Source: Acaryochloris marina MBIC11017 (GTDB taxonomy: Bacteria; Cyanobacteriota; Cyanobacteriia; Thermosynechococcales; Thermosynechococcaceae). Taken from it: a DNA stretch of 32,000 bases. The notes under the pieces were generated by a model. The model was not told the origin of the DNA. It saw only the letters and a program-made list of their open reading frames with translations, and made no database searches. A program made the translations under genes and the position numbers. Of this stretch, positions 1,793 to 22,143 are shown piece after piece. The DNA lies in contig NC_009928.1 in assembly GCF_000018105.1 (NCBI RefSeq), positions 30,001 to 62,000 of the forward strand. The letters run 5' to 3'. The stretch's first letter is position 1. The number at the start of each line of letters is the position of its first letter.

Positions 1793-2511
1793 TAGAAATC
1801 CTCTATTGATGTAATCATCAGGCCGTGACGCTGGTACTTGGTGATCAGGTGGTTGAGTTGGCTATAAGAGTCCCCAAACAGTCGCTGGGCTTCCCCTTCC
1901 GTGGGAATCACCGCCTCAACCACGAGCTTTTTATTCAATTTCTCCGGGAAGGATTTACCGTCCTTGGACCGATGGGTACGGATGGAAATCACATGGATCT
2001 GCCACTGACCCGGTTGGATCTGGGTGAGATGGATATCCGTATCCCGCTTAATCTCAACGACGCTCTGCCATTGACCCGACAGGTATTCTTGGATCGGCTG
2101 CTGAGCTTTCTCATATTTCTGATGCTCAATCTCTAGCCAGCCGTCCCGGAGCAGGGGGTCGATGGACTGGGCTACGGCAAATAGCTCCCCTGGATAAATG
2201 TGGTCGTTATGCTTCTTGGGAGGACTGCCCCCATTCCAGGTCCAGCCCACTTTGACGAGTTCATAGGCATAGGTTCTCAGGAGGGCGTCCTCCCGATGCA
2301 AGGGGTCCACTTTTTCAGCCTGGACGGTCTCATCGTCCTGGGTCTGGACGTAGATGGTGGATTGGTCTGATGCGAGTTGGGCACTGCGGGAGCTGGAGAG
2401 GAACGCTCCACAGCTTGAGAAGAAGTTGAGGGTGAACACCCCCAAAATGGCATACAGCACATAGGGGGGCTGCTTCTTGTGGGTTTCGGTGGGATCTTGG
2501 AGTTTTAGCAT
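1792..2511 (-). CDS. Bitopic T4SS-cluster membrane protein, possibly VirB8/TrbF-like
   Basis: 239 aa with an N-terminal TM (YVLYAILGVFTLNFFSSCGAFL) followed by a ~190-aa soluble domain. The size, topology and operon position match VirB8. There is no motif-level proof. Confidence 0.5.
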   Translation of the reverse strand: MLKLQDPTETHKKQPPYVLYAILGVFTLNFFSSCGAFLSSSRSAQLASDQSTIYVQTQDDETVQAEKVDPLHREDALLRTYAYELVKVGWTWNGGSPPKKHNDHIYPGELFAVAQSIDPLLRDGWLEIEHQKYEKAQQPIQEYLSGQWQSVVEIKRDTDIHLTQIQPGQWQIHVISIRTHRSKDGKSFPEKLNKKLVVEAVIPTEGEAQRLFGDSYSQLNHLITKYQRHGLMITSIEDF

Positions 2512-2540
2512 GGGTCTTGCAATTGGGAATGAGGGGGCTG

Positions 2541-3926: not shown

Positions 3927-4980
3927 CTTTGTATAGCTCCAGTTCAGCTCGGATTTGTTCTTGGAGAGTGAGTTCTGAGGCGCTTAAGTGCAGCCCCGTC
4001 GTGCGCTGCTGATGGGCAAGGGCAGAGCCAACCACGAGGGCATCTGAGGACTTCTTCTGCTCCTCTTGACCCGATACGACGTTGCTCAGTATGGCTCCAT
4101 TGGTTGCGGTTCCTTGAGCCATCAGGCTGTTTTGAGCGGTGAGGGACTTGAGGACTGCTTGGGAGGACTTGAGGGTTTGGGCTTTCTGACCCGTCTCCCC
4201 AACAGAGGTCGCAATCCCAGCCCCCGCTGTGGCTTGCTCTTTGCTAGCGGCACTGAGCTGCACGAGGGCTTGTGTGGACTCAATGGTGTTAACCACGGAC
4301 TGCTGCACCTGCTCTCCCTGCTGCTGAATCAAGGCTTGACCATCTTCAGAAAAGACGAGCTGAGTCATCAGTTGGGGGAGTAAGGCTTTACGGGCCTCGT
4401 TGTTGCGGGCTTGGGTATACACCTGAAAGGGGTCTTGGGGATCCGAATAAATGGGGTCCTCAGATCCACTGCCTCCTTGCTGGCTCCCGCTGGTGCCGTT
4501 GGTGCCCAACTTGTCGTAATTGGCGAGGATAGACGAGACGGACCCGCTTAGGATCCGCTTCAGGGAGAAGTTATCGATTGCGTCATAAATGGCTCGGCCT
4601 ACCTTGTAGGCATCAAGCGCTTTCTGTCCATATTCATAGACCTTGAGAATTTTGCGTTGAGTCTCATTGATCACCCTCGCTTGTCCAGGTTTCTGCTTGG
4701 GTCCCAGGACATTAAAGACCGTGCCGAGGAGACCACTAGGGAGCTGAGCCGTGGGTACTTCCGTATAGGTGGCCGTATCTAGAGGATTATCCTTGGCTAT
4801 CGTCACATCCCCCGTGGGGATGGGCACATCAGGGAAGGTGGTGGGTGCGGTGGTAGTCGGTAAGGTGATATCGCCGCTAATCACGGGGTCGTCATAGGAC
4901 ACCTGAGCATAGGCGGGGACGGTGGTGATGGTAGCTTGAACTGACAGCACCAGAGTTATCAGTAAAGGTTTAGGCTGCAT
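3829..4980 (-). CDS. Secreted Gln/Ser/Ala-rich helical protein (TrbJ/VirB5-like position)
   Basis: An internal ATG at 4978-4980 gives a classical signal peptide (MQPKPLLITLVLSVQATITTVPAYAQ). The ORF-track start at 5046 would add 22 non-signal residues. There is an 11-nt overlap with the VirB4 stop. The mature part is rich in Q/S/A and predicted helices. Confidence 0.55.
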   Translation of the reverse strand: MQPKPLLITLVLSVQATITTVPAYAQVSYDDPVISGDITLPTTTAPTTFPDVPIPTGDVTIAKDNPLDTATYTEVPTAQLPSGLLGTVFNVLGPKQKPGQARVINETQRKILKVYEYGQKALDAYKVGRAIYDAIDNFSLKRILSGSVSSILANYDKLGTNGTSGSQQGGSGSEDPIYSDPQDPFQVYTQARNNEARKALLPQLMTQLVFSEDGQALIQQQGEQVQQSVVNTIESTQALVQLSAASKEQATAGAGIATSVGETGQKAQTLKSSQAVLKSLTAQNSLMAQGTATNGAILSNVVSGQEEQKKSSDALVVGSALAHQQRTTGLHLSASELTLQEQIRAELELYKDERHRAQDQAALREQLSFNYLYIPGLYSETTP

Positions 4981-7900
4981 GGTCTTCCACTCCAATGGTT
5001 TCAACCTCAATCCCTTGTTTGTTGGCCTGGGAGAGCTGATCACCAAAGTCCACTAATCCCGCAACGGGGTCATCAGGATAGCGAGACATCACCCGGTTGC
5101 GGGCTTCGGTTTGCTTTCCTTGGTTGGAACCAACCCCCAAGGTGAAGTTGCTGGGGTTATGGGTGACAATCAGTTGCCGAGACCCCCGCTGCCAGCACCA
5201 GTGGGACTGCTGGAGGGTCTCAGATGCTTTGAAGGAATCATGCTCAAACTTCTTTAATATCTCGGCCTGGAATCCAAATTCTGAGACCAACAGCTCACGG
5301 GCATACTTGTTGACGTAGCTGACAAGTTTGTTCTGGAGGTTGGAAATGACCTTGGATGAACAGCTTGAATTGAGTAAGGTTTTAACTTCCGTCATCCCAA
5401 TCAGGATGTTGCACTTCCACTTGCGGCCTGAGTTAGCGAGGGACCCCACCATCTCGGCAAAGATGGGACGGGTGAGTAGCTCTGACCCTTCATCCACGGG
5501 TAATAGGGTGCGCTTGCCGTTCATGGCTTTGCGGATCAGCAGGTCAAACCCCGCCACCCCATAGACGAGGGAGTCACTATCGTTATCGACGTTGGTCAGG
5601 CCCAGCATCAGGGCATCCACGTTGGCGTCAAAGGAGCTGATGCCATTGATGGAATCGCCTAATGCCGTGGGGATGACACCCTCCAGGAGCAGCTGCAGGT
5701 TCTCAAAGGTCCGCTGCAAGTCTGGGCCGCAGTCATTGTCTTGGATGTACTGGTTGAGCCAACTTTTGGCAAAGGCGACAAACTCCTCATAAATGGGCAT
5801 CTGTGCCGCTTCAGCAGAGCCAAAGGGAGCTATGGAAGCTTTCGTATAGCGCTCTAAGTTGGCCTGATGGAATGCATCAAAGCAGAGACCCAAGGCCCGC
5901 TCAATTAGCAAGTCCTCCATTGGGCTGGACTGGCCCGCCTCTCCCAAGGCAATGGCCTTAAGGATGCGAAGCTTGTTGCGCTTGATAAATTTCCAGGCTT
6001 CCTCATGGGTGGGTTGCTGATAGTCATAGCCCGGTTCACCCGGTTTGGGTAGATCATCAATCCAGGAGACATCGGGCGTCTCCATGACGTTGATGGTGGC
6101 TTTGTCCACAGGCTGATAGGTGGAAGACACATTGAGCTGCTCTTGCGTCTTCATATAAGGTTCATAGCTGGATTTACCCGTGGGGGGTGGGAAGTCAAAT
6201 CCCACGACGTTCATCCCTTCCCGCTGGCAATAGCTCGTCATCTCCAGCATCAGCATGGTTTTACCTGCCCCCGTTTCCCCCGTGACGAGGGTGTGATTGG
6301 GGAAGGTATGGGCTAGATCGAGGTAGAAGGGAATCGGAAGGTCATAACCTATGAGCAACACCCCCCGACGATCCATTGGGGCAGGATGGATTTGGGGCAG
6401 GGTGGGCAGCACTCTCGGGGACATGGTTTTATACAGGTGATTCCCCCCGCCCGGTAAGGTGAGCATGGGGGCGGCACTGATGGCGAGGCTCGTACACCAG
6501 TGATGCTCGAATTTCTGGGTAATCTTGACGGCTTTGGTCCCCTCTAGCTTCTGGGCTAAGGCGTCCAGGTCAAGGTTGAGTTGGTCTACGGAATCTCGAT
6601 AGAGGAAGATGGCGAAGGCGATCCAGAAGGGACGATTGCCGTTGTTCATCCACTCTAGGTTTTTCTTCGTTTCTTCAAGGCGTTCTAAGGCAATGGGGTT
6701 CAGTTCTTTACGCTGGGCGGCATCCCCCATCTTGCGGATGGAGTTCCGCCCCGTTTGCTCCAGGATGGCTCGGGTCAGCCCGGATTTGATGGGCAGCAGT
6801 TCGGTGACCACACGAGCATCTAAGAACAGTTCTCCAGGGGTGGCAAGGGTGTCAAACAGGAATTTGATAAATCCCAATTCCGTGGAGTCTTGGACCTCGG
6901 GGATGGTCCTGAGTCCTTCAAACCGCAGTGCGCCCACATACTTCCCTTTACTCGGCAGGTAGGCGAGGCTTTCACCGAATTGGGGAACAGCAGGTTTCCC
7001 TTTCTCGGGTTCAAACAGGACCCCCAGGCTATGGAGGTGATGCTCACTGACTACTGGATTGGGATCTAAGCCCAGGTCGTCATAGCGAGTGTATTGGGGG
7101 ATGGGGATGCTCTCTTCATGCAGTTCGGCGTAATCCCAATCAAATAGCTCTTGGGCCGTGAGGGGCTGAATTTTATGACCTAAGCCTTCTGCACCCGTGA
7201 GCATCCTCGTCATCCGCCTATAGGAGTTGGTATAGGCGGCAAAGATGGCTTTCTCCCACTGCTCTTTAGATTGGTAGGCTTCCCCCATCACCTTTTGGGC
7301 CACGGTGTCATTCCAAAAGCCCGATACCCACTCGAACACCACATCAGCGGGAGAGTCCGGGGTGTCATAGTCTCCACCGAGACGCATCCGGCATTTAGCT
7401 TGGTAGAGGAGGCGGGATTTAGCGATGCGACCCTCAGCTTCTAGAGATTGCAGGTTCTCAGCGTCGGATTGCAGTTGAGCGGTGGTCAGGGCATCCGTGG
7501 CCTTCCCTAGGGCGGTGGCCGTGGCAATCAAAGGGTCTGAGCAGTCTGCTCTAACATCCAAAATTGCTTTGAGGTCGGTGCCACCGAGATGGCAGATCTT
7601 CTGATTACTTTTATTGAGCTGCTGTTTGGATTGAGCGGGGGTGACGGTCGGGTCCAAACCCAGCACGTCAAACATAAACGCAATTTTGATCTCTCGACTA
7701 TTCCAGTGATGGAGATGGAACCCAACGGTGACCCCTTCAAATTCAAACTGCCCATAGGTCTTAAGGCAGAAGTTATCTTGAATCCGTCTCAGGGGGTCTG
7801 TCTTCTTGGCCTTTGCCATAACGGGCATCCCCACGTTGTCGAACCTTAGGGACGGGCGACCGTCCATGTACGTCGTGGGCTTACCCACCCGCTCCATCTG

Positions 7901-8116
7901 CTGGGAGGGATTGCGGCCAAAAATAAGAATGATGCCGATGCTCGTCAAGGCGATGAAGAGGACGGCCAGCAAAAACCCAAATTTGATTAAGACGGCAAAA
8001 CCCACCCCCAAAACAGCGATGGATGCTCCAAGGTAAAAGACGGGAATACCGTCTAGCATCGTATTCACGGAGAGGATATCTCGTGTTTGACCTTCGTTAA
8101 CGGCTTCAAAATCCAT
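4970..8116 (-). CDS. virB4: VirB4/TrbE-family conjugation ATPase with an N-terminal VirB3-like two-TM segment
   Basis: 1048 aa. Walker A is LVTGETGAGKTM (about nt 6256-6290) and the Walker B-like motif is TLLPVDEGSELL. The N-terminus carries two TM helices (IPVFYLGASIAVLGVGFAVLIKFGFLLAVLFIALTSIGIILIF). A strong SD precedes the ATG (AAAGGAGGACAGCTATG). Confidence 0.9.
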   Translation of the reverse strand: MDFEAVNEGQTRDILSVNTMLDGIPVFYLGASIAVLGVGFAVLIKFGFLLAVLFIALTSIGIILIFGRNPSQQMERVGKPTTYMDGRPSLRFDNVGMPVMAKAKKTDPLRRIQDNFCLKTYGQFEFEGVTVGFHLHHWNSREIKIAFMFDVLGLDPTVTPAQSKQQLNKSNQKICHLGGTDLKAILDVRADCSDPLIATATALGKATDALTTAQLQSDAENLQSLEAEGRIAKSRLLYQAKCRMRLGGDYDTPDSPADVVFEWVSGFWNDTVAQKVMGEAYQSKEQWEKAIFAAYTNSYRRMTRMLTGAEGLGHKIQPLTAQELFDWDYAELHEESIPIPQYTRYDDLGLDPNPVVSEHHLHSLGVLFEPEKGKPAVPQFGESLAYLPSKGKYVGALRFEGLRTIPEVQDSTELGFIKFLFDTLATPGELFLDARVVTELLPIKSGLTRAILEQTGRNSIRKMGDAAQRKELNPIALERLEETKKNLEWMNNGNRPFWIAFAIFLYRDSVDQLNLDLDALAQKLEGTKAVKITQKFEHHWCTSLAISAAPMLTLPGGGNHLYKTMSPRVLPTLPQIHPAPMDRRGVLLIGYDLPIPFYLDLAHTFPNHTLVTGETGAGKTMLMLEMTSYCQREGMNVVGFDFPPPTGKSSYEPYMKTQEQLNVSSTYQPVDKATINVMETPDVSWIDDLPKPGEPGYDYQQPTHEEAWKFIKRNKLRILKAIALGEAGQSSPMEDLLIERALGLCFDAFHQANLERYTKASIAPFGSAEAAQMPIYEEFVAFAKSWLNQYIQDNDCGPDLQRTFENLQLLLEGVIPTALGDSINGISSFDANVDALMLGLTNVDNDSDSLVYGVAGFDLLIRKAMNGKRTLLPVDEGSELLTRPIFAEMVGSLANSGRKWKCNILIGMTEVKTLLNSSCSSKVISNLQNKLVSYVNKYARELLVSEFGFQAEILKKFEHDSFKASETLQQSHWCWQRGSRQLIVTHNPSNFTLGVGSNQGKQTEARNRVMSRYPDDPVAGLVDFGDQLSQANKQGIEVETIGVEDHAA

Positions 8117-8715: not shown

Positions 8716-10809
8716 TTATTGCTGGGCGTAGTTGAGCAGGGTCTGAAGTTGGTCAGGAGAGATTTTGGCCCGCTTTGCTGCCACATCAGCCTTTGCTCCC
8801 CAACGCATCTGGCGAATCATGCCGTTAACTCGCCAATGCATTTCCGAGAGATAGCTATACGTCTGGTTGCCTGACGCTCTAGCGATGTTTAGACCCCTCA
8901 AAAGGGTCGCTGGAGTGATACGGCTATCGGACACATTAGTTTTAGTCAGGGGTATGTTAGCCGTTGGGATAGGCTTTACCTTCTGAGTTAGGGGGACTCG
9001 TCGCACAGGAGGACGTTTGACGATCTTCGGTTTGGGAAGTGTCTGAGCCTGGGGCTTTAAGGTCAAAGGCTGGACCGCTGTCGAAGCTTGATGAACGCGA
9101 GTCCTCTCAGGTGGTTGACCCAGGCGACCTGTGAAGACTCGCGATTGCTCTGGGGTATGAGCAATGGGGGTGGGTGTTCCAATCCGAGTGATGGCAGTAC
9201 TGGGGGCACTGTCAGACCGATTGATCGTTAACTCCATTGAGGAGCGGTTGCAGCCCACTAAATCTTGGATTAAGTTCGTCGATTTCACCTGGGTATTGGG
9301 TTTCCAAGTCAGGTAAATCTTCTGGGTTTGGGGTTGGGGCCGATCCAAGCTCAGGTCAAAGATTCCCCTCGTACCCATATAGGCTTTGGAGACCCGGCAC
9401 CCGCTTGCGGTAAGGTCAATCAGGTGACCATGACCGGGCGCTATCTTAATGGTTTCCGCTGTGGCTGGGGAGATGAGCAGCCCCAACCAGGCCGCGATCA
9501 TGGCGGCAATGGTTTTGTACATGGCGTTTTTCCTTGGCAAGTGCATCTGCTGGGGTGGAGGGTTGCTATCAAAGACAGCTCCTCGCTGTGGTTGTTGGCT
9601 GGTGTCAGGGCCAGCCCGTGATGGAAATCCTCTAAGGCAATCAGATATCGTCGCTAATGGTCTGTGAATAAACTCGGTTACTGCTTGGCAGAATCCCAGA
9701 TGTCCTCGCCCAGTCGTTCCAGGCTCTCCCAGTCCACGGCATCGCTGATCCGCTGGGGAAGGTTGATGCCCCGGTCGATCAGTAGACCCGTCACTGCGAC
9801 CCCCACAAAGAACCAAAAGAGATTCCTGAGCATGGGCAATAACTCCTTTGACTAAGTTGATAGCTTTAGCAGAAAGAGACTCTATAGCAGGGGGAGCCTG
9901 GGAATAAGCGTAAGGATTAATGCTGTTTTCGTAGCAGAAGGAAAGAGGAGCAGGCCAGGTATTGAGGTTTACTCGTTCCTGACCTACTTCTGGTGCTGTT
10001 GATGGGGAGGATCTGCTGAAACTTTGGGAAAATCCTAGTCGAGTATGTTCCAGTTGGTCTTTGGCTGCATTCACGAACTGCGCCAAGCCAACCCGGAACC
10101 ACTGCTTGAGGAGATGGATTGGGATTTGATACTTCGGTGGAATGAAAGGTGGAGGTGCTTTGATTAGGACGAGATTTGTCTTTGTCTCAGGTTCAAGCTC
10201 AATATCAAAATACTCGTCATATTCTTCATCATCCGTGTAGAATGACGCATCATCAATCACAAATTCATGCCAGTCTGGGATTTCTTGAAATGAACGGCCC
10301 CAATAGAGTAAATCCTCGATATATTCCAGCTTTAGGTTCGCTTTTCGGGCAATCTCTTCCAGGTTGGCATCAGGAAACTCGTTTTGGAGTCTGTAAACCC
10401 TATCGAGATGGACTTGTTTTTTCTCGGGCAATCTCAATTGCTTGGGTCTGTTTTTATAGCAGAATCTACGGATATATCCGCGAATCCAGCCTCTTGCATA
10501 GGTGGAGAACTTGCATCCTTTCGTAGAGTCGAATTTCCCCACGGCATGACGGATGCCTAACATCCCCTCTTGGATCAGGTCTTGAGCATCATCCAAAGTC
10601 CATGCGTATTGTTTGGCGAGTTTCGCCACCAAGCGAACATGCCCGATCATCAGCCATGACAAAGAGGTCTCATGGCCTCGCTTAGCTTTGCGGATCAGGT
10701 CTAGCTCTTGCTCTGGGTCTGGGATGGGGAAGCGGTGCAAGAACTGAACGAGATATTCGGGTAGACGGATTCCGTCTGAGAAGGGGCTAGCAATCGTAGT
10801 GGTCGTCAT
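8716..10809 (-). CDS. 697-aa ORF: N-terminal sigma-70 region 2/region 3-like module, ~240-aa low-complexity linker, signal-peptide/TM segment, then a beta-rich periplasmic domain (VirB9-like?) with a Pro-rich spacer and a helical C-terminus
   Basis: The sigma region 2 signature is DLIQEGMLGIRHAVGKFDSTKGCKFSTYARGWIRGYIRR, followed by a region 3-like LRLPEKK...LEEIARKANL. No region 4 HTH is recognisable. A strong SD precedes the start (TAGGAGGTTTGACCCGATG). An internal in-frame ATG at 9520-9522 has its own SD-like AAGGA and a signal-peptide-like MYKTIAAMIAAWLGLLISPATA. Confidence 0.65.
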   Translation of the reverse strand: MTTTTIASPFSDGIRLPEYLVQFLHRFPIPDPEQELDLIRKAKRGHETSLSWLMIGHVRLVAKLAKQYAWTLDDAQDLIQEGMLGIRHAVGKFDSTKGCKFSTYARGWIRGYIRRFCYKNRPKQLRLPEKKQVHLDRVYRLQNEFPDANLEEIARKANLKLEYIEDLLYWGRSFQEIPDWHEFVIDDASFYTDDEEYDEYFDIELEPETKTNLVLIKAPPPFIPPKYQIPIHLLKQWFRVGLAQFVNAAKDQLEHTRLGFSQSFSRSSPSTAPEVGQERVNLNTWPAPLSFCYENSINPYAYSQAPPAIESLSAKAINLVKGVIAHAQESLLVLCGGRSDGSTDRPGHQPSPADQRCRGLGEPGTTGRGHLGFCQAVTEFIHRPLATISDCLRGFPSRAGPDTSQQPQRGAVFDSNPPPQQMHLPRKNAMYKTIAAMIAAWLGLLISPATAETIKIAPGHGHLIDLTASGCRVSKAYMGTRGIFDLSLDRPQPQTQKIYLTWKPNTQVKSTNLIQDLVGCNRSSMELTINRSDSAPSTAITRIGTPTPIAHTPEQSRVFTGRLGQPPERTRVHQASTAVQPLTLKPQAQTLPKPKIVKRPPVRRVPLTQKVKPIPTANIPLTKTNVSDSRITPATLLRGLNIARASGNQTYSYLSEMHWRVNGMIRQMRWGAKADVAAKRAKISPDQLQTLLNYAQQ

Positions 10810-13386: not shown

Positions 13387-16300
13387 TTATGCCGCCAGCT
13401 CTGGCATTCCTCTCTCCAACATCTTCACAGGCAGCGTCATTGCTAACCCCTCCAGAATCGCCATCTGGCCCGATGCACTGACTTCACTCCATACCGAACT
13501 CCATTCCTTGGGCTTGAGCCAGTCAAAGAATACTTCATTTAGGCTCGGCAATAGGTCATTGACGGGTAGATCCGCCAGTTCATCCAAAACACCCGCAATC
13601 GCTTGATGGGTCTCTTGGTTTGGATTTGGCGCGTTGCATAGATTGTTCATTTTGCTATTTAAACCTTTTAATAGCGAAATGAACAGACGCCAGTATCGCG
13701 CAATCGTCCCTCTGGGGATTTGGGTCATTGCTGAAACGATTTGCTGAGTGACCTTCTCGCCTTTGGCTTGGAGTTGGAGAATGGCCGACTCAATGGCGAT
13801 TTCTACTCGCTCTGTTTTATGAGCAGCATCCAGGGTAAGTTCCTTAGCTTGGACTTCCTGAACGAAGCAGTCCATCTCAATGTTGGAAATCAGTACCACT
13901 TGTAGGGATTCATGCGGACGCCGATGTGCCCTCAGTCGCCCGATGGCTTGGTGAATTTCTGCGAGGATGGAGCGGTCAATAAATGCCGTGAATGCTGGAT
14001 TATCCTCTTCTGGATAATATCCACAGACAATGGCGAATTCAGCAGCCAAGTCATTGAGATTGCGGCAGGGAGTGCCGACAAGGACTAGAGTCTGGACGGT
14101 GAGGAAATCATTGACCCCTCGGCTATCGCGCCACCAGGCCCCATCCTTTTCAAACTTCTTGAAGTCAATCGTTCGGGTATTCACTGCATCCAAATCTTGG
14201 TAATGCTGGGCCAAGGCCCCAATACGCTTGGTCTGATCCCCGCCTCTACTCATGCCCACTCGCCCCATGTCCTTCACCTGAATCACCTCTAGGTTTCCGG
14301 TGTCTGGGACAGCTTGGCGCACCACTAGGATTTCATCAGGAGAGCAGCCCAGCTTCAGCGCCAGGTCTTCACGGGATAGAGTGGCATCGAGGAACACATT
14401 GGCTTGGGCAGCTTGAGCTAAGTCTCGATGGCGAGGGTTGGGAGTATTGAGAGTTAAAAGGCCATAGCGACTGACTTGGATACATCCTGCTCCACCCTGC
14501 AAGATGCGGATTAGGGGGATGAGCCACTGCTTAACCACTCCATTCCTAGCCTGCTCAGCCATCTCCGAGTCTCGCTCAGAGAACTTTTTGCGAAGTTGCT
14601 TGGGTAGATCAGCAAGATCCACCCCATAGTCTGAGGTGGTGTTGAGAAAGCCCAGGTTAGGCATCAGGACTTGGGTCAGTTCGCCTAGCTTCACTCCAGC
14701 CATGTCAGGGAGCTTGGCTTTCATCTCCAAGTGATTGAGGCCATACTTTCCCAGCTTCTCAGACCCATCCATTAAGGGCAGCAGCGCAGAGAGTAAGGGC
14801 TGCACTAGGGCAAAGATCTCAGGGTAGGCAATCAGACCTGAAATGGTTTGCTGTAAGTCATTGAAGGTGACGGTCACGGACTGCTTGACCTGGAAGTTTT
14901 GCCCTGGCTCATCCCAGATCAGCATCGTGTTCTCTAAGGGGTAATCCTCTGGGTCTGGTAGTGAGTCGGGATGTGCCCTCAACAGTGGTGTACCCAAGAC
15001 ATTTCGCCGCTGATTCAAGAACCCGTATCCTGGCCCATCCGCATTGATACAGGCTTCTCTGGCAATGCAGGTGCCACAGATGAGATTGGCGGTATCAGCA
15101 CCAGGGATGTTCTTGTCTCGCAGGGCATTCAAGACTCCAATGCGGCTACAGTTAGCAGGAACAGCGAAGGCATCCCCTTTGGCAGATCGTTGGAGTCGAT
15201 TTTTGACCCGGTTGAGTCCTCCATGTCTCGCTTCTAGGTCACACCAGCCATTTCCTTGTTCTAAAGTTGATACGGTGGGATTGCGGTGCTGGTCTGAAAG
15301 ATAAATAACCTGCTCCATCCCAAAGCCAATCGGGGTAACGTTCCCAGAGTCGTAGCTTTTCCCAGTACCCGGTTGGGACTGATCGAGGATATAGGGGAAT
15401 CCTGATGAGATGAGGGTTTCCCAAGTTTGGAGTCGTTGTCCGGGTTGGTATTCGTGGACTAGAGGTGTTGTCGGGCTGAGAGTCCCGTTATCTCCAGGGC
15501 AGCTTTGTAAGCTGCTGCTTCTGGAGTTTGCTGATTGTGCTGTACGTCTTCTAATGCGACTTCGATAATTTTCCAGTCGAAGTTTTGAAATATATCCATG
15601 TCTACGATGAGCTGCAAGGAGTCGTGCAGTGCGACGACGGGATCGTCTAGCTCGACGGCTTGTTGCAGGCAGCGTTGCAAGACGCTCTTCATCTGGTGCA
15701 GTTCGCTTCGTTCTGCGAGATTCAGTGGGGTGGGTTTGTTGGTCATTGGGAGTGGCAAACCCTTGAGCGGGCGATGAAGGACGAGTGAGTTTTGAGAGTG
15801 CCTGCTGAAGCTGATGCAATAGCCCATTACATTGAGCTGCAATCCGTTCAAAGTCAGCCACAGACAAATATTGAATCTGGCTTAGGTCATCCAGTTCATC
15901 AATGTCAGTGTGGATGCGTTTGTCTGTCTGCTTCCACCAGGCAACGGTGACAGTGTAACCCCACTCCTTCAGCAGCGCCCAGGTTGACCGGTATTGCCGC
16001 AGTACTGACTTGTTCTGAATCGCCCCAGCATCGGGGTAGAACTCGATAGTTGTTATCCCAAGCTGGGCTAGGGTTGCTTTCAAGGTTTCAGGGGATGCCG
16101 CGAACAATCCCCCCGCTGCGCCGATGGTCACTTGGCCCATGCGCTGAGCTAGGAGGTGAGGTTTTGCTCCAGTACCTTCAACGAGTGCGAATGCATCTCT
16201 CGTGATTTGCTCTGGACGGTGGATGGCTAGGGGTAATTCACCATTGCGAAGGTGGGGTGTGGGTCCGTTGGGCCGTTTCCTAGTTTTGCCTGTGAGCCAG

Positions 16301-16911
16301 AAATAGCGACCACCCTCGGAACTGCGGGATCTGATTTGGAATCCGACGATCTGACCGTCAGCATCCATGATGGGGCAAAGGTAACCTGGCCTTGGGGTGT
16401 TGAGAGACTTCCCATCCAGGTTTATTCCTGGCAAGTCATGGGGTAGTTCACCAGAGAGCGGTTGCCACTGTTCGACTGACTTAACTCCCCAGTCTTGGAT
16501 TTGCTCATTGGTGAATCCTCGACGATGCAAGTCTGCCCGATCTGCTGGGTGCAAGGTGAGCTGGTCAAGGAGTTGGCGATATAGCCGATCCCGTTCAATT
16601 GCGGGGAGCGATTGGGCATGGCGTTGAGCCTCAACTTGGGCACGTTGCTCTCTGAGAATTCGTTGCTCTTGCCATCGGCGTTCCCAGTCTTCCTGGCTAA
16701 GGTCTTCCCCGTCATCAAGGACGTATTTACCCCAGAGGCCATCTTTGGATTGGCCGAGGTAGCGATATCCCTCGATCTTGCCTGAAAGGGTCATGCAGAG
16801 ATTGAGGTTGCCTGCCTTTCTACATTTGCCTGTGATATCCCCGCAGAGATCGCAGGGGTTGGAGCGGTTGGTTGCAAGCAATTTACTCGAAATATTTTGA
16901 AAGCTAGACAT
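13387..16911 (-). CDS. Giant Zn-finger / Toprim (DUF3854-like) / P-loop NTPase protein: primase-helicase-type plasmid replication (CyRepA1-like) or DNA-processing protein
   Basis: 1174 aa. The N-terminal Cys cluster is CDLCGDITGKCRKAGNLNLC. Toprim-like acidic motifs are FALVEGTGAK and IEFYPDAGAI. Walker A is QPGTGKSYDS and Walker B is MLIWDEPGQ. An SD (GGGAG) precedes the ATG at 16909-16911. Confidence 0.75.
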   Translation of the reverse strand: MSSFQNISSKLLATNRSNPCDLCGDITGKCRKAGNLNLCMTLSGKIEGYRYLGQSKDGLWGKYVLDDGEDLSQEDWERRWQEQRILREQRAQVEAQRHAQSLPAIERDRLYRQLLDQLTLHPADRADLHRRGFTNEQIQDWGVKSVEQWQPLSGELPHDLPGINLDGKSLNTPRPGYLCPIMDADGQIVGFQIRSRSSEGGRYFWLTGKTRKRPNGPTPHLRNGELPLAIHRPEQITRDAFALVEGTGAKPHLLAQRMGQVTIGAAGGLFAASPETLKATLAQLGITTIEFYPDAGAIQNKSVLRQYRSTWALLKEWGYTVTVAWWKQTDKRIHTDIDELDDLSQIQYLSVADFERIAAQCNGLLHQLQQALSKLTRPSSPAQGFATPNDQQTHPTESRRTKRTAPDEERLATLPATSRRARRSRRRTARLLAAHRRHGYISKLRLENYRSRIRRRTAQSANSRSSSLQSCPGDNGTLSPTTPLVHEYQPGQRLQTWETLISSGFPYILDQSQPGTGKSYDSGNVTPIGFGMEQVIYLSDQHRNPTVSTLEQGNGWCDLEARHGGLNRVKNRLQRSAKGDAFAVPANCSRIGVLNALRDKNIPGADTANLICGTCIAREACINADGPGYGFLNQRRNVLGTPLLRAHPDSLPDPEDYPLENTMLIWDEPGQNFQVKQSVTVTFNDLQQTISGLIAYPEIFALVQPLLSALLPLMDGSEKLGKYGLNHLEMKAKLPDMAGVKLGELTQVLMPNLGFLNTTSDYGVDLADLPKQLRKKFSERDSEMAEQARNGVVKQWLIPLIRILQGGAGCIQVSRYGLLTLNTPNPRHRDLAQAAQANVFLDATLSREDLALKLGCSPDEILVVRQAVPDTGNLEVIQVKDMGRVGMSRGGDQTKRIGALAQHYQDLDAVNTRTIDFKKFEKDGAWWRDSRGVNDFLTVQTLVLVGTPCRNLNDLAAEFAIVCGYYPEEDNPAFTAFIDRSILAEIHQAIGRLRAHRRPHESLQVVLISNIEMDCFVQEVQAKELTLDAAHKTERVEIAIESAILQLQAKGEKVTQQIVSAMTQIPRGTIARYWRLFISLLKGLNSKMNNLCNAPNPNQETHQAIAGVLDELADLPVNDLLPSLNEVFFDWLKPKEWSSVWSEVSASGQMAILEGLAMTLPVKMLERGMPELAA

Positions 16912-17590
16912 GGGCTAGCTCCCATGCCCGTAGCTGGGTGCTGAATAAATGGTTCATTTACGAACTCCCTGAAGTTTCTAGATGTAGCGAAAGGGAGCCG
17001 TGGAAAAGGTTTCAGCAAAGGCTTGCAATGAATTACAAGTTAGGGCTAAAATCTAAGCACGGCAAAACCCAGGTAACCAAATGCGTGGTGTCAAACAAGC
17101 TTCGGTTCCCGCCTTGCAAGTTAATAATGATCAAACCCCCTTCTCGCCAAAGTTGGGGTTTTGTCATTTATAGGGTCATTCTCACCTCCTATTTGTTTAA
17201 GTAATAGACTTTAAATACACTGAAAGCGTTGATCGATCAAGCTTTTAGCGTATTTGTATACCGTATAGACACAGCCCAAGGCGAGTGGGGGACTGTCAAG
17301 ATATATTTTTGAGTTTATTCTCAAGGAGAACTTGCAGATACAGCGAGAGAAATCAAGGATGTCTTGCGCTGGTGTTATAAAGAATGATGAAACTTAAAGT
17401 TGTCTTGGACAAATTCAGATCTGCTATAAGAAGCTGGTATTTGAGACTAGCTTGAAAAGAGATCCTTTAGTTGGTAGTTAGAAAAATGCTTAACGCAATC
17501 TTACCGCAAAACTGATAGGTGATCATTAGCCTTTTCTAAATACAAATATGCTTTCTGCAAAGTTTTTTAACGCATTATCCTCCTTCGAGT

Positions 17591-18664
17591 TTATAGCTTT
17601 TTCACTGGTTGCTTGATTGCGGCCCAAGCAGCGAGAGCGTCTGTGCATCGCTGAGGATCTGGCTCAGCACAGTAACAGGAGCAGAATAAACTCTCCATTA
17701 AGATAAAGAGCAAAGGATCTGCAAGATTGATAACTACTATGGAATCATCGGCATCCGTTGTAGTGGAAAGACAGTTTTCAATAATTTTTCTCAGATTTTT
17801 TAGATCTATATCTTCTCCGTAGAAGGTGTGAAATAGCAGCGTACTTCTAGCTTGTAGCGTTATGGCCTGTGTCCAATCTTCTCTCTGCCGTGGAAAATAT
17901 AGAAGTAATGCTACTTCAGGTGGGAAAAGTTTTAGAAACTTCCTAGATGAACCTTCCCCGCAAAACAAGTAATGAGATTTACCTAGTTTCCAGGTATCCC
18001 CCTCTTTAACTTCTATGGGTTTTCCCTCAAGGGGCTTAGGAGAAACAGGTTGTTTCTTTGCTCGTGAGCGCTTAATAGACTTCTTCTGTTCAGTTTGAGG
18101 TCTATCGCGGATATTTGTTGTGTCCATCTCGAAAATAGTTCCACCTCTTTTCGCCAGGCGTACGGAAGGGTCTAAATCTAGTCCTTCTGCGTCATGGTTT
18201 ATCTGTTCTTCAGGAACGGATAGACTTTTACGGATACGTCCAACAAAACTGTTTGCGACTCCACAACGCCTCGCTATTTCTCGATCACTCCATTTCATCC
18301 ATTCCTTATCACGAAGTAACCTTTTAACAGCCCGATGCTTGTCTGCATTTGTTCTTCGAAGTCCATGCGCTGCATTAGCTCCAACTGCGTATAGGACAGC
18401 ATCTCGCTGTGTTCCGAGACGCACATCAGCAGTTACATCTTTTGATCCTATGGTTTCTCTAGCGCGTACTCTATGGAAACCATCAGCTAACCAATACTCT
18501 TCTCCATCGTAATAGACGATAACTGGAGGGAAAATTGCACCTTGCTTCATGTCTTCAGCATATTCAGCAACCACTTCTTCAAATAATTGAGCGCGAGGTT
18601 GGGTACCGCCATCCATGCAGATTTTTGCTATGTCCACGGACTGAATAGAAGGTTCGGATGGCAT
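17591..18664 (-). CDS. ParB/Srx N-terminal domain protein with central HTH and a degenerate DNA-methyltransferase-like C-terminal region
   Basis: The ParB-N motifs are DGGTQPR and DGEEYWLADGFHRVRA. The HTH-like segment is WSDREIARRCGVANSFVGRIRKS. The C-terminus (GDTWKLGKSHYLFCGEGSS...ALLLYFPRQ) resembles the GD.W.LG.H.L.CGDS...TDPPY entry of ParB-MTase fusions, but the catalytic residues are replaced. The ORF-track start at 18667 is a TTG and the adjacent ATG is at 18662-18664. Confidence 0.8.
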   Translation of the reverse strand: MPSEPSIQSVDIAKICMDGGTQPRAQLFEEVVAEYAEDMKQGAIFPPVIVYYDGEEYWLADGFHRVRARETIGSKDVTADVRLGTQRDAVLYAVGANAAHGLRRTNADKHRAVKRLLRDKEWMKWSDREIARRCGVANSFVGRIRKSLSVPEEQINHDAEGLDLDPSVRLAKRGGTIFEMDTTNIRDRPQTEQKKSIKRSRAKKQPVSPKPLEGKPIEVKEGDTWKLGKSHYLFCGEGSSRKFLKLFPPEVALLLYFPRQREDWTQAITLQARSTLLFHTFYGEDIDLKNLRKIIENCLSTTTDADDSIVVINLADPLLFILMESLFCSCYCAEPDPQRCTDALAAWAAIKQPVKKL

Positions 18665-18696
18665 CAAGAGCTAGTGGTAGACAACAATATATCGCT

Positions 18697-18712
18697 ATCT
18701 AAACATCTAAAC
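18697..18712. repeat. Tandem 8-mer ATCTAAAC x2 (GTTTAGAT x2 on the minus strand), 33 nt upstream of the ParB-like gene start
   Basis: Read directly: atctaaac (18697-18704) and atctaaac (18705-18712). This is the same octamer as the core of the 12305-12340 repeat. Confidence 0.9.
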
Positions 18713-18767
18713 CTTCCTGGCAATAGACAATTGAGAGAATTACAAGTCTTTTATTAAGATATGTTAG

Positions 18768-19229
18768 CTAAAGTGTCCGTATATTTGTTGCAATAGTCTG
18801 TCCTCTCTTCCTTCTAGAGCGATTTGGTGATTGGTCCAAGTATTGTAGAGGCTCACTTTGGCCATCATACAAGATGTTCTCAAAAAATCTGTGTTTTTCT
18901 TCACTGCTATGTATATCACTAGGATTCAAATTGGAACGTGCTGAGTAAAAATTTGCATCGTAACGAGAACCAGGCTGCACCTCAGTCGAAATACTTTGTT
19001 CAGCTACAAACTGCTTAGCCAGAAATCGATGCAATCCATCCGCTAACCAGTAATTATCGCCATCAAAAAAAACAACCACTGGTGGAAACTTAGCCCCTTG
19101 CCTCATTGCCTCAGCAAATTCACCAACAACCTCTTGAATCAGTTGTTGATAAGATTGTATTTCATTATCAAGAGTTATATCTGATAGTTTCAGATTGGTG
19201 AATGAATTATCAACTTTTGAATAGCTCAT
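18768..19229 (-). CDS. Stand-alone ParB/Srx N-terminal domain protein (paralog of the downstream gene)
   Basis: 153 aa. QEVVGEFAEAMRQGAKFPPVVVFFDGDNYWLADGLHRFLA aligns with the neighbouring ParB-like protein, but its GGTQxR motif reads DNEIQSY. An SD (TAGGAG) precedes the ATG. Confidence 0.8.
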   Translation of the reverse strand: MSYSKVDNSFTNLKLSDITLDNEIQSYQQLIQEVVGEFAEAMRQGAKFPPVVVFFDGDNYWLADGLHRFLAKQFVAEQSISTEVQPGSRYDANFYSARSNLNPSDIHSSEEKHRFFENILYDGQSEPLQYLDQSPNRSRRKRGQTIATNIRTL

Positions 19230-19388
19230 TAATTTAAACTCCTAATACAAAAAGATATAAGTTGAAGACTGAAGCATGCAGGGCCTTAATCTCCTGATTG
19301 ATGAATTCTAAAGCTGTATAACTCATTGACATTTAGTAATTCATATCAGATTAAGCTAATAAGGACTCATATGAATGCAGTATGAATA

Positions 19389-19464
19389 AAAGCTTTTAAC
19401 AGCGCAACTAACAACTTGTTAACAAGAACGTTAACAAGTTGTTAGTTGCGCTGTTAAAAGCTTT
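19389..19464. repeat. Perfect inverted repeat: 35-bp arms (19389-19423 / 19430-19464) with a 6-nt spacer AAGAAC
   Basis: All 35 pairs were checked individually. Left arm is AAAGCTTTTAACAGCGCAACTAACAACTTGTTAAC and right arm is GTTAACAAGTTGTTAGTTGCGCTGTTAAAAGCTTT. Pairing stops on both sides (19388/19465 and 19424/19429 are mismatched). Confidence 0.98.
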
Positions 19465-19740
19465 ATGCAGGTAAGTTTATCTTGCTAATGGCGCAGATAT
19501 GCATGGATATAAGCAGATTAAAATAAGACTTGATTACCAACAAAAATAAATGGTTATTTGAATAAATACTATCTCTATAAATGAATAATAGAATAAAAAA
19601 TACTGCATATCACTAATTAGTAATTGCAAAAATACTAATTTAATATATAAAAATGTATTTTCATATAATTGCTAATTGCTAACTATACAACTATTTATAT
19701 GATACTCTTGTATTGAAATTATTGATTTCTATTATGGAGT

Positions 19741-20832
19741 ATGGAAATACCCTATTCTCAACATAGGAATACTTCACCAATGGATAAAGAGTGGGATCTT
19801 CAAAGATTGTACTCTGATTTAGAGATGGTGAATAAACAGAGCTTGTCAAATAGTGCCAAGCAATACTTAGAATACATTTTGTTGGGTCAATCTCCATCGA
19901 ATATTGCTGAAACTTTAAATCCTGAAAGCAGACAATCATCAGGGACTATTAGAACGGTTTTATCAAGAGATGTTTATCCTAGTTTAATTTTATTATTAAA
20001 CCTGCCAGAAGATTATAGAATGCGCTGGAACAAAGTTCCAATGTTGCTAAGTCAGTATAAAATCGCAAAGAGAGAAGCTTGTTCATCATCGCCTTCTTAT
20101 ATTCACTATGAAAAGAATCAGAATAGCTATGTTGGCTCCTGCCAGATCAAGTCAGATATTATAAATGGGCTTCTAAAAAAGTATTTTCTAAAAAAGGGTT
20201 TCACTGAAGATTTTCTCAGCTCTAACACAAAAAGTATGAGTTTTAGAAGTGAGTGGCAAACAATTGTTAATAAGCTTGTGAGTGAAACAAGAGAAACTTT
20301 ACTAGCGATGGTCTTAGATACTGAACTAAAGAAATGGTGGTCATCAATCGCAGGAATGATGTATATGGCAACTAATGTCAATCTACTAAAAAATGGGGTT
20401 AAAATTAAACGAATATTTATATTAAACTCATTAGACTTTAGGATAAGAAATAATGCTATTATGAATGCATATTTGCATGAAAAGATGGGAGTCGAAGTTA
20501 AAATTCTAGACAATATTGATTGCAAAATTAAAATGTTTATCGATGCAGATATGATATCTGTACATGATAAAGAATTGATAGCTTTATATTATCTTTCTGA
20601 AGATTGTGAGATTACGGAACTTCTTTTAGACTATTGTTCTATTTCAGCCTTTAGCTCTTTCTATGATGAATTATTTGATGATGATAGATTGTGTGAAAAT
20701 GTTGATAAAATAATATCAAATAGCAATTTGAGTAGCTCCTTCTTTTCTGATATTGAACATCAAATCAATTACTTAAAGAGAATTAGTTGCTCAACATCTG
20801 TTAAAGAATTTCTTGGTATATTGCCTAATTGA
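19741..20832 (+). CDS. Hypothetical 363-aa protein with an N-terminal LuxR/sigma-r4-like HTH segment and an uncharacterised C-terminal domain
   Basis: LSNSAKQYLEYILLGQSPSNIAETLNPESRQSSGTIRTVLSRDVYPSL follows the L..xE...L.L...G.S..EIA..L......T.R pattern of LuxR-type HTHs (a weak call). The C-terminal ~170 aa (GVKIKRIFILNS...HEKMGVEVKILD...) has no motif I can name. The start could also be the ATG at 19780. Confidence 0.65.
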   Translation: MEIPYSQHRNTSPMDKEWDLQRLYSDLEMVNKQSLSNSAKQYLEYILLGQSPSNIAETLNPESRQSSGTIRTVLSRDVYPSLILLLNLPEDYRMRWNKVPMLLSQYKIAKREACSSSPSYIHYEKNQNSYVGSCQIKSDIINGLLKKYFLKKGFTEDFLSSNTKSMSFRSEWQTIVNKLVSETRETLLAMVLDTELKKWWSSIAGMMYMATNVNLLKNGVKIKRIFILNSLDFRIRNNAIMNAYLHEKMGVEVKILDNIDCKIKMFIDADMISVHDKELIALYYLSEDCEITELLLDYCSISAFSSFYDELFDDDRLCENVDKIISNSNLSSSFFSDIEHQINYLKRISCSTSVKEFLGILPN

Positions 20833-20836
20833 ATAT

Positions 20837-21295
20837 ATGAAAAGTACTGAATTAAAAACAGGAAGAACTTTTGGTGTTACTTTTGAACATCAATCAGATT
20901 TTTTTCAAGAGCTTTCAAGCTTTTGTAAAGAGAATCAAGTACAGCAAGGATATATCCCCATGTTTATTGCTGGATTCTCCGAAGTAGAATTAGTGGGAAC
21001 TTGCAGCAAAATTGATGATGTCAATGCTCCAGTATGGGATAAGGTACACTTAAGCAATGTAGAAGCTTGTGGATGTGGTACTATTGCCTATGATTCTGAC
21101 GAAGATAAAATATCTCCACATATTCATGTTAATACTGGTATAAAAAGTTATTCTGCTTCTGGACATACCAGTCATTTATTAAGTGCTAAGGTTCTTTTTT
21201 TGGTTGAAATGCTTATTGTAGAAGTTCTACAACCTGACATGAGAAGAGTTGTTGATCCAAATTTATATAATATTGGATTACTTCAGTTTATTTAA
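20837..21295 (+). CDS. PPC (DUF296) domain protein
   Basis: 152 aa. GRTFGVTFEHQSDFFQELSSFCKENQVQQGYIPMFIAGFSEVELVG ... HIHVNTG...SGHTSHLLSAKVLFLVEMLIVEV matches the PPC/DUF296 pattern (GR...L..G.D....L..F......A.....G......L ... H.H........GH.......V....E). The ATG at 20837 lies 4 nt after the upstream stop. The ORF-track start at 20813 is a TTG. Confidence 0.7.
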   Translation: MKSTELKTGRTFGVTFEHQSDFFQELSSFCKENQVQQGYIPMFIAGFSEVELVGTCSKIDDVNAPVWDKVHLSNVEACGCGTIAYDSDEDKISPHIHVNTGIKSYSASGHTSHLLSAKVLFLVEMLIVEVLQPDMRRVVDPNLYNIGLLQFI

Positions 21296-21333
21296 TTACC
21301 CTAAAAACTATTCTACTTCTTGGGCTTAATGAA

Positions 21334-22143
21334 ATGAAAGTAGGTTTTATTCAATTCTCACCTATTCTCGGTAAGCCAACTCAAACTTTAGAACGACTAG
21401 AATACTTAATTGATAAAGGTAAACATTCAGATATTCTTGTGCTGCCAGAATTGTGTAATTCTGGATATGCCTTTAATTCTAGGCAACAAGCTCTAAATTC
21501 AAGTGAATCTGTCGCTGATAGTAAATTTATTCGTTTTCTTCACGAAAAGTCAAATAAATATAATCTATATATCGTGTCAGGTTTTTGTGAAAAATCTGAC
21601 AAGGATTTGTATAATTCTTCTTTTCTAGTTGGACCAAATGAATATATAGAAGTTTATAGGAAGTCACATCTTTTTCTGAATGAAAAAGATTTTTTTTCTC
21701 CTGGGAATACAGATTATTCTGTCTATGACATTGGTATCTGTAAAATAGGGATGTTGATTTGTTTTGATTGGGTGTTCCCTGAAGCATGGAGAATCTTAGC
21801 TCTTAAAGGTGCTGATATTATTTGTCATCCCTCTAATATTGTTCTACCTGATTTGTGCCAAAAGACCATACCTGGCCACTCTATATGCAATCGAATGTTC
21901 ATCGTAACAGCTAACCGTATAGGCACTGAGGATAATCTTACGTTTACAGGTAGTTCAATTATTTGTGACCCTAGAGGTAATATTCTGACCCAAGCTTCGG
22001 ATGATCAAGAAGAAGTAATGATTTCAGACATTGATTTGAATTTAGCTAGGGATAAATCAATTACATCTAGGAATCATATCTTTCTTGATAGACGGCCAGA
22101 TAAGTATTTGGATATAGCGAAAGCAATTGAAGAATCAGTATAG
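21334..22143 (+). CDS. Carbon-nitrogen hydrolase (nitrilase superfamily) protein
   Basis: 269 aa. The Glu-Lys-Cys triad sits in its canonical contexts: VLPELCNSGY, VYRKSHLF and GMLICFDWVFPE. Confidence 0.9.
   Translation: MKVGFIQFSPILGKPTQTLERLEYLIDKGKHSDILVLPELCNSGYAFNSRQQALNSSESVADSKFIRFLHEKSNKYNLYIVSGFCEKSDKDLYNSSFLVGPNEYIEVYRKSHLFLNEKDFFSPGNTDYSVYDIGICKIGMLICFDWVFPEAWRILALKGADIICHPSNIVLPDLCQKTIPGHSICNRMFIVTANRIGTEDNLTFTGSSIICDPRGNILTQASDDQEEVMISDIDLNLARDKSITSRNHIFLDRRPDKYLDIAKAIEESV

Follow-up and report, generated by a model that had tools for sequence, protein, structure and literature searches.

What does a perfect palindrome of 76 nucleotides (nt) do between two divergent genes of a cyanobacterial plasmid? 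The question is raised by a 32,000-nt stretch of DNA from Acaryochloris marina MBIC11017 (contig NC_009928.1, positions 30,001 to 62,000 of the forward strand), here called the window, with positions counted from its first letter. The window is part of a plasmid and shares 99.3% identity over 3.5 kb with pREC3 of strain MBIC10699. Positions 19389 to 19423 and 19430 to 19464 are complementary at 35 of 35 positions, with the spacer AAGAAC between them. Comparison with related loci suggests that the element is most likely a palindromic control site of an ordinary kind, set in an uncharacterized and rare plasmid gene unit. Its eye-catching 35/35 perfection does not appear to be the functional unit; the element to study is a core of about 44 bp together with an adjoining promoter-like box. 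The parts of the site are as follows.

19389-19423, no strand: left arm, 35 nt, sequence AAAGCTTTTAACAGCGCAACTAACAACTTGTTAAC; pairs 35/35 with the right arm
19424-19429: asymmetric 6-nt spacer, AAGAAC; sequence conserved, orientation varying by lineage
19430-19464, no strand: right arm, 35 nt; only the inner 19 nt (19430-19448) are kept in the related contig L013
19405-19448: conserved palindromic core of about 44 bp (19-nt arms plus spacer), a putative protein-binding site
19379-19407, minus strand (the ParB_N strand): promoter-like element TTGCGC-17 nt-CATACT, its -35-like box inside the left arm
19375-19380, plus strand: ATGCAG motif in the left flank of the palindrome
19465-19470, plus strand: ATGCAG motif abutting the right arm, 90 bp from the left-flank copy

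The palindrome is real, conserved, and locus specific

The 76-nt unit occurs once in the window with 3 mismatches allowed (0.00 expected by chance). It is the longest inverted repeat there by a wide margin: the runner-up, with 20-nt arms at 90% and a 2-nt spacer, falls within the 3′ part of the CyRepA1 gene (13644 to 13685), and in shuffled windows (n = 5) perfect inverted repeats were at most 8 to 9 nt long. As single-stranded DNA (ssDNA), the palindrome has a predicted fold of −40.7 kcal/mol (z = −12.3). An earlier note on this DNA, made from the letters alone, had described the perfect 35-bp arms, the nested AACAA-C-TTGTT and GTTAAC sites in each arm, and the 511-bp gap between divergent genes (19230 to 19740), and all of these are there. 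It had also placed a drop in base composition at the palindrome, but the fall in GC begins near 19100, inside the small ParB_N gene.

Because the palindrome is found in 3 complete plasmid records and 5 independent Logan/ENA assemblies, it is not an assembly artifact, a doubt that the same note had raised. It is single copy and conserved in homologous plasmids; the second BLAST match in each plasmid is the palindrome matching its own opposite strand, with one site per locus in the stretches examined. Neither a scan of GTDB representative genomes with the 22-nt arm core nor a search of JGI metagenome contigs with a palindrome-specific pattern gave a match. No open reading frame of at least 20 amino acids (aa) spans the element, the closest (19463 to 19543) sharing only its last 2 bases.

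Two common identities can be set aside at once. A rho-independent terminator, already doubted in the earlier note, is rejected: a terminator scan gave no terminator-like site, there is no U-tract, and the flanking genes diverge, pointing away from the element. The suggestion of a foldback element or miniature inverted-repeat transposable element also fails, as the palindrome is single copy, lacks a target-site duplication (its flanks, TATGAATA and ATGCAGGT, differ), and has no match in the two large collections named above.

A core of about 44 bp is conserved across lineages

We compared the window with pREC3, S15 plasmid unnamed43, Moss Beach pMB01, and the Logan/ENA contigs L011 to L013, L015, L018 to L020, and L022, among which L011/L012 and L018/L019 are near-identical pairs. 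Arm positions 17 to 35 (19405 to 19423, CAACTAACAACTTGTTRAC) are invariant, except for position 33 (A/G), in every Acaryochloris-type locus and in L013. The window and L013 share 86% identity in 19372 to 19448, against 60% in the intergenic DNA to the left and 49% in that to the right. Core identity so far above that of the flanking DNA between lineages implies purifying selection on the core. Within this core lie two 13-bp subpalindromes, TAACAA-C/G-TTGTTA (19409 to 19421 and 19432 to 19444, centers 23 bp apart), each arm holding one copy of TAACAANTTGTTA; no further copy with up to 2 mismatches occurs in the window.

Pairing between the arms varies by lineage. It is perfect (35/35) in the window and pREC3 and 32/35 in the S15 type, where two left-arm changes are mirrored in the right arm. 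L022 and L020 each pair at 29/35 with an imperfect outer arm, and L013 pairs at 24/35 with the inner 19 positions perfect. L011 and L015 pair at only 19/35 and 14/35, and their hairpin potential is down to about 7 bp. The MAFFT alignment nevertheless places both collinear with the window across the conserved block (41/71 matches for L011, P < 0.001; 39/71 for L015, P = 0.003, against shuffles). Their centers, TGTTAAC-N6-GCAAACA in L011 and TGTTAAC-N6-GCTAACA in L015, share the form TGTTAAC-N6-GYWAACA.

Conservation is also asymmetric: it runs through the left flank (AGTATGA...), the entire left arm, and the spacer but extends just 19 nt into the right arm. Judged from these alignments, the outer 16 nt of the right arm are a lineage-specific copy of the left arm. 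The earlier note had considered the stem far longer than a normal operator; what persists across lineages is only the inner 19 to 23 nt or so of each arm, and the 35/35 form is limited to the window/pREC3 lineage. The dyad-symmetric half-sites are conserved above background, the pattern expected of an operator, and the core is, in our judgment, probably a protein-binding regulatory site.

The site occurs where the cassette adjoins the ParB pair

The palindrome separates a leftward operon of ParB-like genes from a rightward, AT-rich cassette. The genes concerned are listed below.

13387-16911, minus strand: CyRepA1-family replication protein, 1174 aa; the S15 homologue is so annotated, and there are weak primase-like matches
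17591-18667, minus strand: ParB-like protein, 358 aa, with a ParB N-terminal domain and a helix-turn-helix (HTH)
18768-19229, minus strand: small ParB_N protein, 153 aa, with a ParB N-terminal domain and no HTH; first gene of the leftward operon
19741-20832, plus strand: putative regulator "H," 363 aa, no Pfam match; first gene of the AT-rich cassette
20813-22143, plus strand: PCC/DUF296 gene and CN-hydrolase gene, the remainder of the AT-rich cassette

The 363-aa protein, which consists of an N-terminal helical HTH-like head and a conserved C-terminal domain of about 210 aa, is rare. Twelve homologues were found among 5.8 billion proteins, 8 of them full length; in the other 4 the similarity is confined to the C-terminal ~210 residues, which follow a bona fide XRE HTH. 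A protein-pattern scan of GTDB representative genomes with this family gave 0 confirmed loci. Wherever contig ends or insertion sequences leave it visible, the order ParB, ParB_N, intergenic region (500 to 836 bp), 363-aa gene, PCC, CN-hydrolase is kept down to 58% protein identity. The cassette has 27 to 34% GC in the window, and in L011 (6001 to 8443) it has 29 to 35% GC against 51 to 52% in the genes at both ends of the locus. The kept gene order and the AT richness in deep relatives indicate a long-standing association of the cassette with the ParB pair and speak against a recent insertion whose boundary the palindrome would mark; its low GC (19741 to 22143 in the window), 29 to 35% in replicons of about 52% GC both in Acaryochloris and in the relative at 58% identity, is a persistent compositional anomaly and does not point to recent transfer.

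All 12 sequences that join the cassette to a ParB pair have the site (the window, L001 to L003, L011 to L013, L015, L018 to L020, and L022), and in the eleven loci beyond the window it is single copy, in the same relative position, and in the same divergent gene unit. It is missing from 8 ParB pairs of the same family that lack the cassette (L004 to L010 and L021), whose divergent neighbor is an NB-ARC-like, kinase, or TPR gene. In place of the site, these loci have direct repeats of the GATGCTAGGT type or a short hairpin rich in GC, and L021 has no site even though its ParB_N is 72% identical to that of the window. The site is also missing from L016, the sole cassette found without a ParB pair, where homology starts only about 100 bp upstream of the 363-aa gene. 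Another breakpoint is seen in L018, L019, and pMB01, which have a different ParB module (ParB 62% identical) joined near 19026, inside ParB_N; the site is unchanged despite the swap.

Two further observations concern these loci. L016 and L021 both come from SRR17348485, which holds a cassette without ParB pair or palindrome (homologous to L015) and also a window-type ParB pair beside an NB-ARC-like gene and a kinase gene. In pMB01 (L002), the region from 3387 to 8047 is decaying, with IS21-like and other transposase genes in the ParB module and an ISL3 transposase interrupting the 363-aa gene; the core and arms of its palindrome are identical to those of S15.

A putative operator for the cassette regulator

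As to which protein would bind, we tentatively favor the reading, drawn from sequence comparison, that the core is an operator through which the 363-aa regulator of the cassette controls the ParB-like operon. An operator at the ParB_N promoter for the cassette regulator would be needed only where both partners adjoin, and this is the distribution seen. A symmetric dimeric or tetrameric DNA-binding protein would bind the two TAACAA-N-TTGTTA units of the core, its likeliest identity being the cassette-encoded protein. From a position just upstream of TTGCGC-17-CATACT (minus strand), it would regulate the ParB_N and ParB-like genes at the level of transcription; both the binder and the direction of regulation are things that we infer. 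Control from the core would couple the AT-rich cassette to the plasmid maintenance module. For none of this would the 35/35 perfection or the 76-nt length be needed, as arm-to-arm copying by template switching could supply both.

The position of the site is in keeping with such a role. It lies 117 to 197 bp from the ParB_N start codon, versus 314 to 714 bp from the start of the 363-aa gene. The -35-like TTGCGC falls at plus-strand positions 19402 to 19407 and the -10-like CATACT at 19379 to 19384, and 11 sequences, with the window among them, match the pattern [GT]TGC[GA][CT]-N17/18-CATACT, each exactly once and always in the same position. L022 has CATAAT, one step nearer to TATAAT than CATACT. 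The element may thus be the -35/-10-like promoter of the ParB_N operon.

The 363-aa protein co-occurs with the site, and its putative recognition helix, SGT(I/V)RT(V/L)L(S/A)RDVYP, is conserved throughout, whereas the predicted ParB recognition helix shows no correspondence with the site. The ParB helix SNTFVGKIRNE is common to L018 and L007, yet the palindrome is found only in L018; conversely, the L011 ParB helix (DEKTVRNIRKQ) differs from that of the window, and the half-site is kept. An HTH in the regulator is backed by the replacement of its head with an XRE HTH in the 4 relatives and by similarities below threshold. Modeled alone, its N-terminal domain reached a pLDDT of 77.5, and its best matches were PerR/Fur/Zur, an ECF sigma -35-binding domain, and MecI DNA-binding domains, all with E > 1.

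Several points weigh against this assignment. The HTH-like matches of the regulator's own head are all below threshold (E ~0.3; Foldseek E > 1), and the AlphaFold model of the full 363-aa protein is poor (pLDDT 61), with an empty fold search. The promoter-like element is weak, with 3/6 and 4/6 matches to the sigma-70 consensus, and a simple promoter scan passed over it and listed a candidate at 19332 to 19305 instead. The co-occurrence could be pure linkage, the intergenic region having been inherited along with the cassette. L018 is a recent recombinant (97% identical to S15), so a site orphaned there could hardly have decayed yet; for L016 there is only the one example; and the sample is small, with about six independent lineages.

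Among the closest known arrangements are palindromic operators at divergent promoters bound by dimeric HTH regulators, such as the 20-bp lux-box-type sites of the LuxR family, which likewise place a symmetric site in a shared intergenic region. As in such operators, the site here has dyad half-sites (TGTTAAC/GTTAACA) and a core that is kept amid diverged DNA, lies just upstream of a -35-like box that it also overlaps, and has a putative regulator gene adjacent. Unlike a lux-box-type site, the core is about 44 bp long and contains two 13-bp palindromes, which makes it exceed what one dimer would occupy, and it lies 314 to 714 bp from the regulator's own gene; unlike in LuxR systems, the regulator head matches neither LuxR nor any other HTH family significantly.

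The locus thus defines a previously undescribed, rare, and conserved five-gene unit on cyanobacterial plasmids, in which a ParB-like pair and a regulator-PCC-CN-hydrolase cassette flank a probable control site. It suggests a tie, open to test, between an AT-rich accessory cassette and the ParB-like operon of a plasmid, and it offers a starting point for studying how maintenance genes are regulated on Acaryochloris megaplasmids.

ParB as a possible alternative binder

Another candidate binder is the 358-aa ParB-like protein itself, for which the palindrome would be a centromere for partition, an autoregulatory operator, or both. ParB-family proteins typically bind palindromes, and here each arm holds one of 13 bp directly upstream of the ParB_N/ParB operon. 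The protein aligns to Spo0J/ParB structures through the HTH region. ParB-parS and KorB of plasmid RK2, the latter with a 13-bp palindromic operator, likewise combine a palindrome upstream of a ParB-family operon on a plasmid with a 13-bp subunit. We nonetheless consider ParB binding unlikely: the 8 siteless same-family pairs include L021, with its 72% identical ParB_N, and L007, with the same helix as L018. The site is also unchanged after the swap to a ParB only 62% identical, and the half-site is kept between the window and L011 although their recognition helices differ. In addition, no ParA was found in the window, the submotif has no extra copies in the 32 kb, and the ParB box of the 358-aa protein, DGFHRVRA, is noncanonical (canonical GERRxRA). 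The site differs from parS in having no sequence resemblance to it (no parS-like 16-mer was seen by eye) and in being single copy.

The ATGCAG repeats flanking the palindrome have a better claim to being ParB sites. Four ATGCAG motifs lie in the intergenic region of the window (19276, 19375, and 19465 on the plus strand and 19603 on the minus strand), against 0.48 expected (P = 0.002), and the pair that brackets the palindrome at 90-bp spacing is kept in L003 and L020 of the A. marina clade. The motif resembles the GATGCTAGGT direct repeats of the paralogous modules. Four to five such repeats face an NB-ARC and kinase operon in the intergenic regions of L004, L006, L008, and L009, and L021 has TGTAGGT-like repeats at 5790 to 5830. 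Repeats of the ATGCAG/GATGCTAGGT type are candidate iterons or true ParB sites.

Probable template switching and inversion of the spacer

If the conserved core is a control site, the outer arms and the loop call for a separate explanation. The spacer reads AAGAAC in the window and L020, AAAAAC in L022, and GAGAAC in L013, but GTTCTT in pREC3, S15, pMB01, L018, and L019. The 76-nt unit of the window is the 100% reverse complement of that of pREC3, while the flanks are 99.5% identical, so that one loop flip separates two nearly identical plasmids. We mapped inversions by parsimony on a neighbor-joining tree built from about 2 kb of DNA on the flanks, the palindrome itself being masked. A minimum of 2 independent spacer inversions was required in 200/200 bootstraps. 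The ancestral orientation is that of the window, pREC3 having flipped after 0.5% divergence from it; the tree places no flip in the window's own lineage. The S15 center, TTGTTGAC-GTTCTT-GTTAACAA, is the exact inversion of an L022-like center, TTGTTAAC-AAGAAC-GTCAACAA. As the asymmetry at position 33 moved with this inversion, the inverted segment must have extended into the arms.

The arms show a matching history. When reverse complemented, the right outer arms of L020 and L022 (AGAACTAATTGCAGCGC and AGAACTGTTTGCAGCGC) resemble the left arm of L013 (AGGACTATTTGCAGCGC), which indicates that an ancestor copied its left arm onto the right. The sequences further indicate that the arms would have diverged after this copying and then been rehomogenized in the window/pREC3 and S15 lineages. 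Template switching during replication is known to homogenize arms, extend stems, and reversibly invert spacers, and it is favored by long arms and short spacers (PMC8604942; PMC8794818). Both arm-homogenizing multinucleotide changes and an exact spacer inversion between close relatives are found here. On this comparative evidence, the 35/35 perfection, the extra length, and the flipped loop are best seen as probable by-products of replication template switching. Since template switching itself yields mirrored changes, the mirrored "compensatory" substitutions are no proof of selection for pairing. The earlier note was right that the element is real, nonrandom, locus specific, and not a terminator; it overlooked the spacer inversion and the operator-like reading.

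All three outcomes of published template-switch evolution of inverted repeats (Ripley-type quasipalindrome correction; PMC8604942; PMC8794818) have their match here. Arms grow from about 7 to 19 to 35 nt across relatives, with mirrored double substitutions, and there are two independent spacer inversions, one within 0.5% divergence and one carrying an inner-arm marker base. Whereas the published cases come from yeast coding regions, RNA genes, and primate genomes, this one, inferred from comparison, concerns a plasmid regulatory site with unusually long arms. Together the loci make up an unusually clean natural series of a palindrome on a bacterial plasmid that has grown longer and more perfect by template switching, with several flips of its loop along the way. 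Two loop orientations between perfect arms are likewise seen among close relatives in the flip-flop of chloroplast noncoding hairpin loops and in parvovirus flip/flop termini. The chloroplast loops, whose flip-flop is mutational and not functional, are the better analogue: nothing here suggests the hairpin-primed (rolling-hairpin) replication of parvoviruses, and the element is internal to a circular plasmid.

If so much of the symmetry is mutational, the whole palindrome might have no sequence-specific function and be a neutral or self-propagating template-switch product in noncoding DNA. The outer-arm symmetry is indeed lineage specific and made or restored by arm-to-arm copying, the spacer does flip, and template switching alone is able to create and maintain perfect stems (PMC8794818; PMC8604942). 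However, arm copying homogenizes within a lineage, and it leaves unexplained the conservation of the core across lineages amid flanks of 49 to 60% identity, the collinear homologue in relatives at 58% protein identity, and the co-conserved asymmetric left flank and -10-like box. We regard a functionless palindrome as improbable.

Possible roles in replication, RNA, and recombination

We are similarly skeptical, with little weight left for it, of a DNA hairpin or cruciform serving replication or transfer, be it the CyRepA1 origin or single-strand initiation site, an origin of transfer (oriT), or an ssDNA promoter used after conjugation. The predicted fold is very stable, and the palindrome lies beside a stretch of 20 to 25% GC, at the window's main gene-orientation switch and 2.5 kb from the CyRepA1 gene, with two genes between. 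pREC3 is typed conjugative (MPF_T mating-pair formation and a MOBF relaxase), and interaction between the arms during replication is evident from the spacer inversions. But only about 7 bp of hairpin potential are left in distant relatives, which still keep the sequence block. The association with replication genes fails in both directions, as L018 carries the palindrome with no CyRepA1 nearby, and cassetteless CyRepA1/ParB modules (L010 and others) lack it. In pSYSA the origin maps within the ssr7036-slr7037 fragment, which takes in the Rep gene and its small preceding gene, with origin and Rep gene directly adjoining; that region is not reported to hold a long palindrome, and the CyRepA literature makes no mention of palindromes or ParB. 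DnaA-box-like matches are at chance (19 versus 16.3 expected). As for transfer, the palindrome is present on pMB01 and S15 plasmid unnamed43, both typed non-mobilizable, and no relaxase was found in the window. The proposals of an oriT, a single-strand initiation site, or an origin that had been made for this element therefore fare poorly.

It is also possible to combine structure with control, the palindrome being a structure-dependent element (an extruded cruciform or single-stranded hairpin) by which a horizontally mobile AT-rich regulator-PCC-nitrilase cassette would control the ParB/Rep maintenance operon, with the two spacer orientations as functionally distinct and rapidly interconverting states. 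We think this very unlikely. Were it true, the site would be a very small invertible switch made by replication and not by a recombinase, with interconversion possibly within one culture.

An RNA element, either a long 5′ untranslated hairpin (an RNase III or stability element) or a small RNA across the palindrome, is no more credible. Hairpin potential is strong on either strand, and a minus-strand promoter-like site at 19613 to 19585 could give a long ParB_N leader. A permissive Rfam scan of 16800 to 20000, however, gave only two generic microRNA-hairpin matches, MIR5635 (39.8 bits against 149) and MIR6288 (33.9 against 74), and no family at its gathering score, which leaves the suggestion of a structured RNA without a known counterpart there. 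Arm mismatches turn into a G:U pair on opposite strands, plus in S15 and minus in L022, and so single out neither strand. In L011 and L015 the hairpin is not conserved but the linear block is, and neither a U-tract nor a terminator-like site is present.

Least credible of all is a site-specific recombination site or scar of cassette insertion (a tyrosine-recombinase core, an attC-like site, or a protelomerase target): dif/lox-type core sites do have the same geometry of inverted arms around an asymmetric 6-bp spacer, and the fall in GC is near, but the window yielded no recombinase, integrase, or protelomerase, a single-site event cannot invert its own spacer, the spacer is not self-complementary as a protelomerase would need, and the perfect arms lack the extrahelical bases that attC sites have. 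All 3 observed breakpoints lie away from the palindrome (L018 and L002 have theirs near 19026 in ParB_N, and that of L016 is about 100 bp upstream of the 363-aa gene), and synteny of cassette, site, and ParB pair, with a collinear site to 58% protein identity and an AT-rich cassette in deep relatives, speaks against the boundary scar of a recent insertion that had been proposed. Two specific forms were rejected. The sequence GGTGCGCA in L011 matches the start of Escherichia coli dif, but no XerD-type arm or central region follows it; an attC-like site would have R′/R′′ core sites, extrahelical bases, and an integrase, none of which is present.

Neighboring genes

Several features of the surrounding genes are recorded here. 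The gap upstream of the CyRepA1 gene (16912 to 17590) has weak two-copy repeats only and nothing origin-like. A PADLOC search of the five genes of the unit gave no defense-system match.

The C-terminal half of the ParB-like protein (17591 to 18667, minus strand; residues ~225 to 358) holds GDTWKLGKSHYLFCGE, a motif typical of the junction in ParB-fused DNA methyltransferases. No methyltransferase domain was detected in it, and this half may be a degenerate methyltransferase-like domain. The HTH segment WSDxxIAxxCGVSxxFVGKLR is missing from the small ParB_N proteins of the window clade and L011 (147 to 158 aa) and retained in the 205- to 214-aa small ParB proteins of L013 (650 to 1267), L018 (3770 to 4414), and L010.

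Farther away, at 8716 to 10809 (minus strand), the window encodes a 697-aa protein with sigma-70 region 2 only, near its N terminus, and weak similarity to MzaA-type sigma proteins; a similar "HTH regulator" of about 700 aa comes after ParB in pREC2 and L018. Co-oriented genes on the minus strand from 344 to 8116 have no Pfam matches and accompany one for a 1048-aa P-loop ATPase with weak HerA/AAA-like matches. This run is possibly a conjugation module.

Outside the five-gene unit, XRE-headed relatives of the 363-aa protein stand directly before a PCC/DUF296 gene in three loci, L023 to L025 (JGI 3300054965 and 3300054961 and SRR35626477), which adjoin HTH_17 (excisionase-like) genes. By its gene order, regulator plus PCC appears as a conserved pair that is found there in a different, possibly mobile, context.

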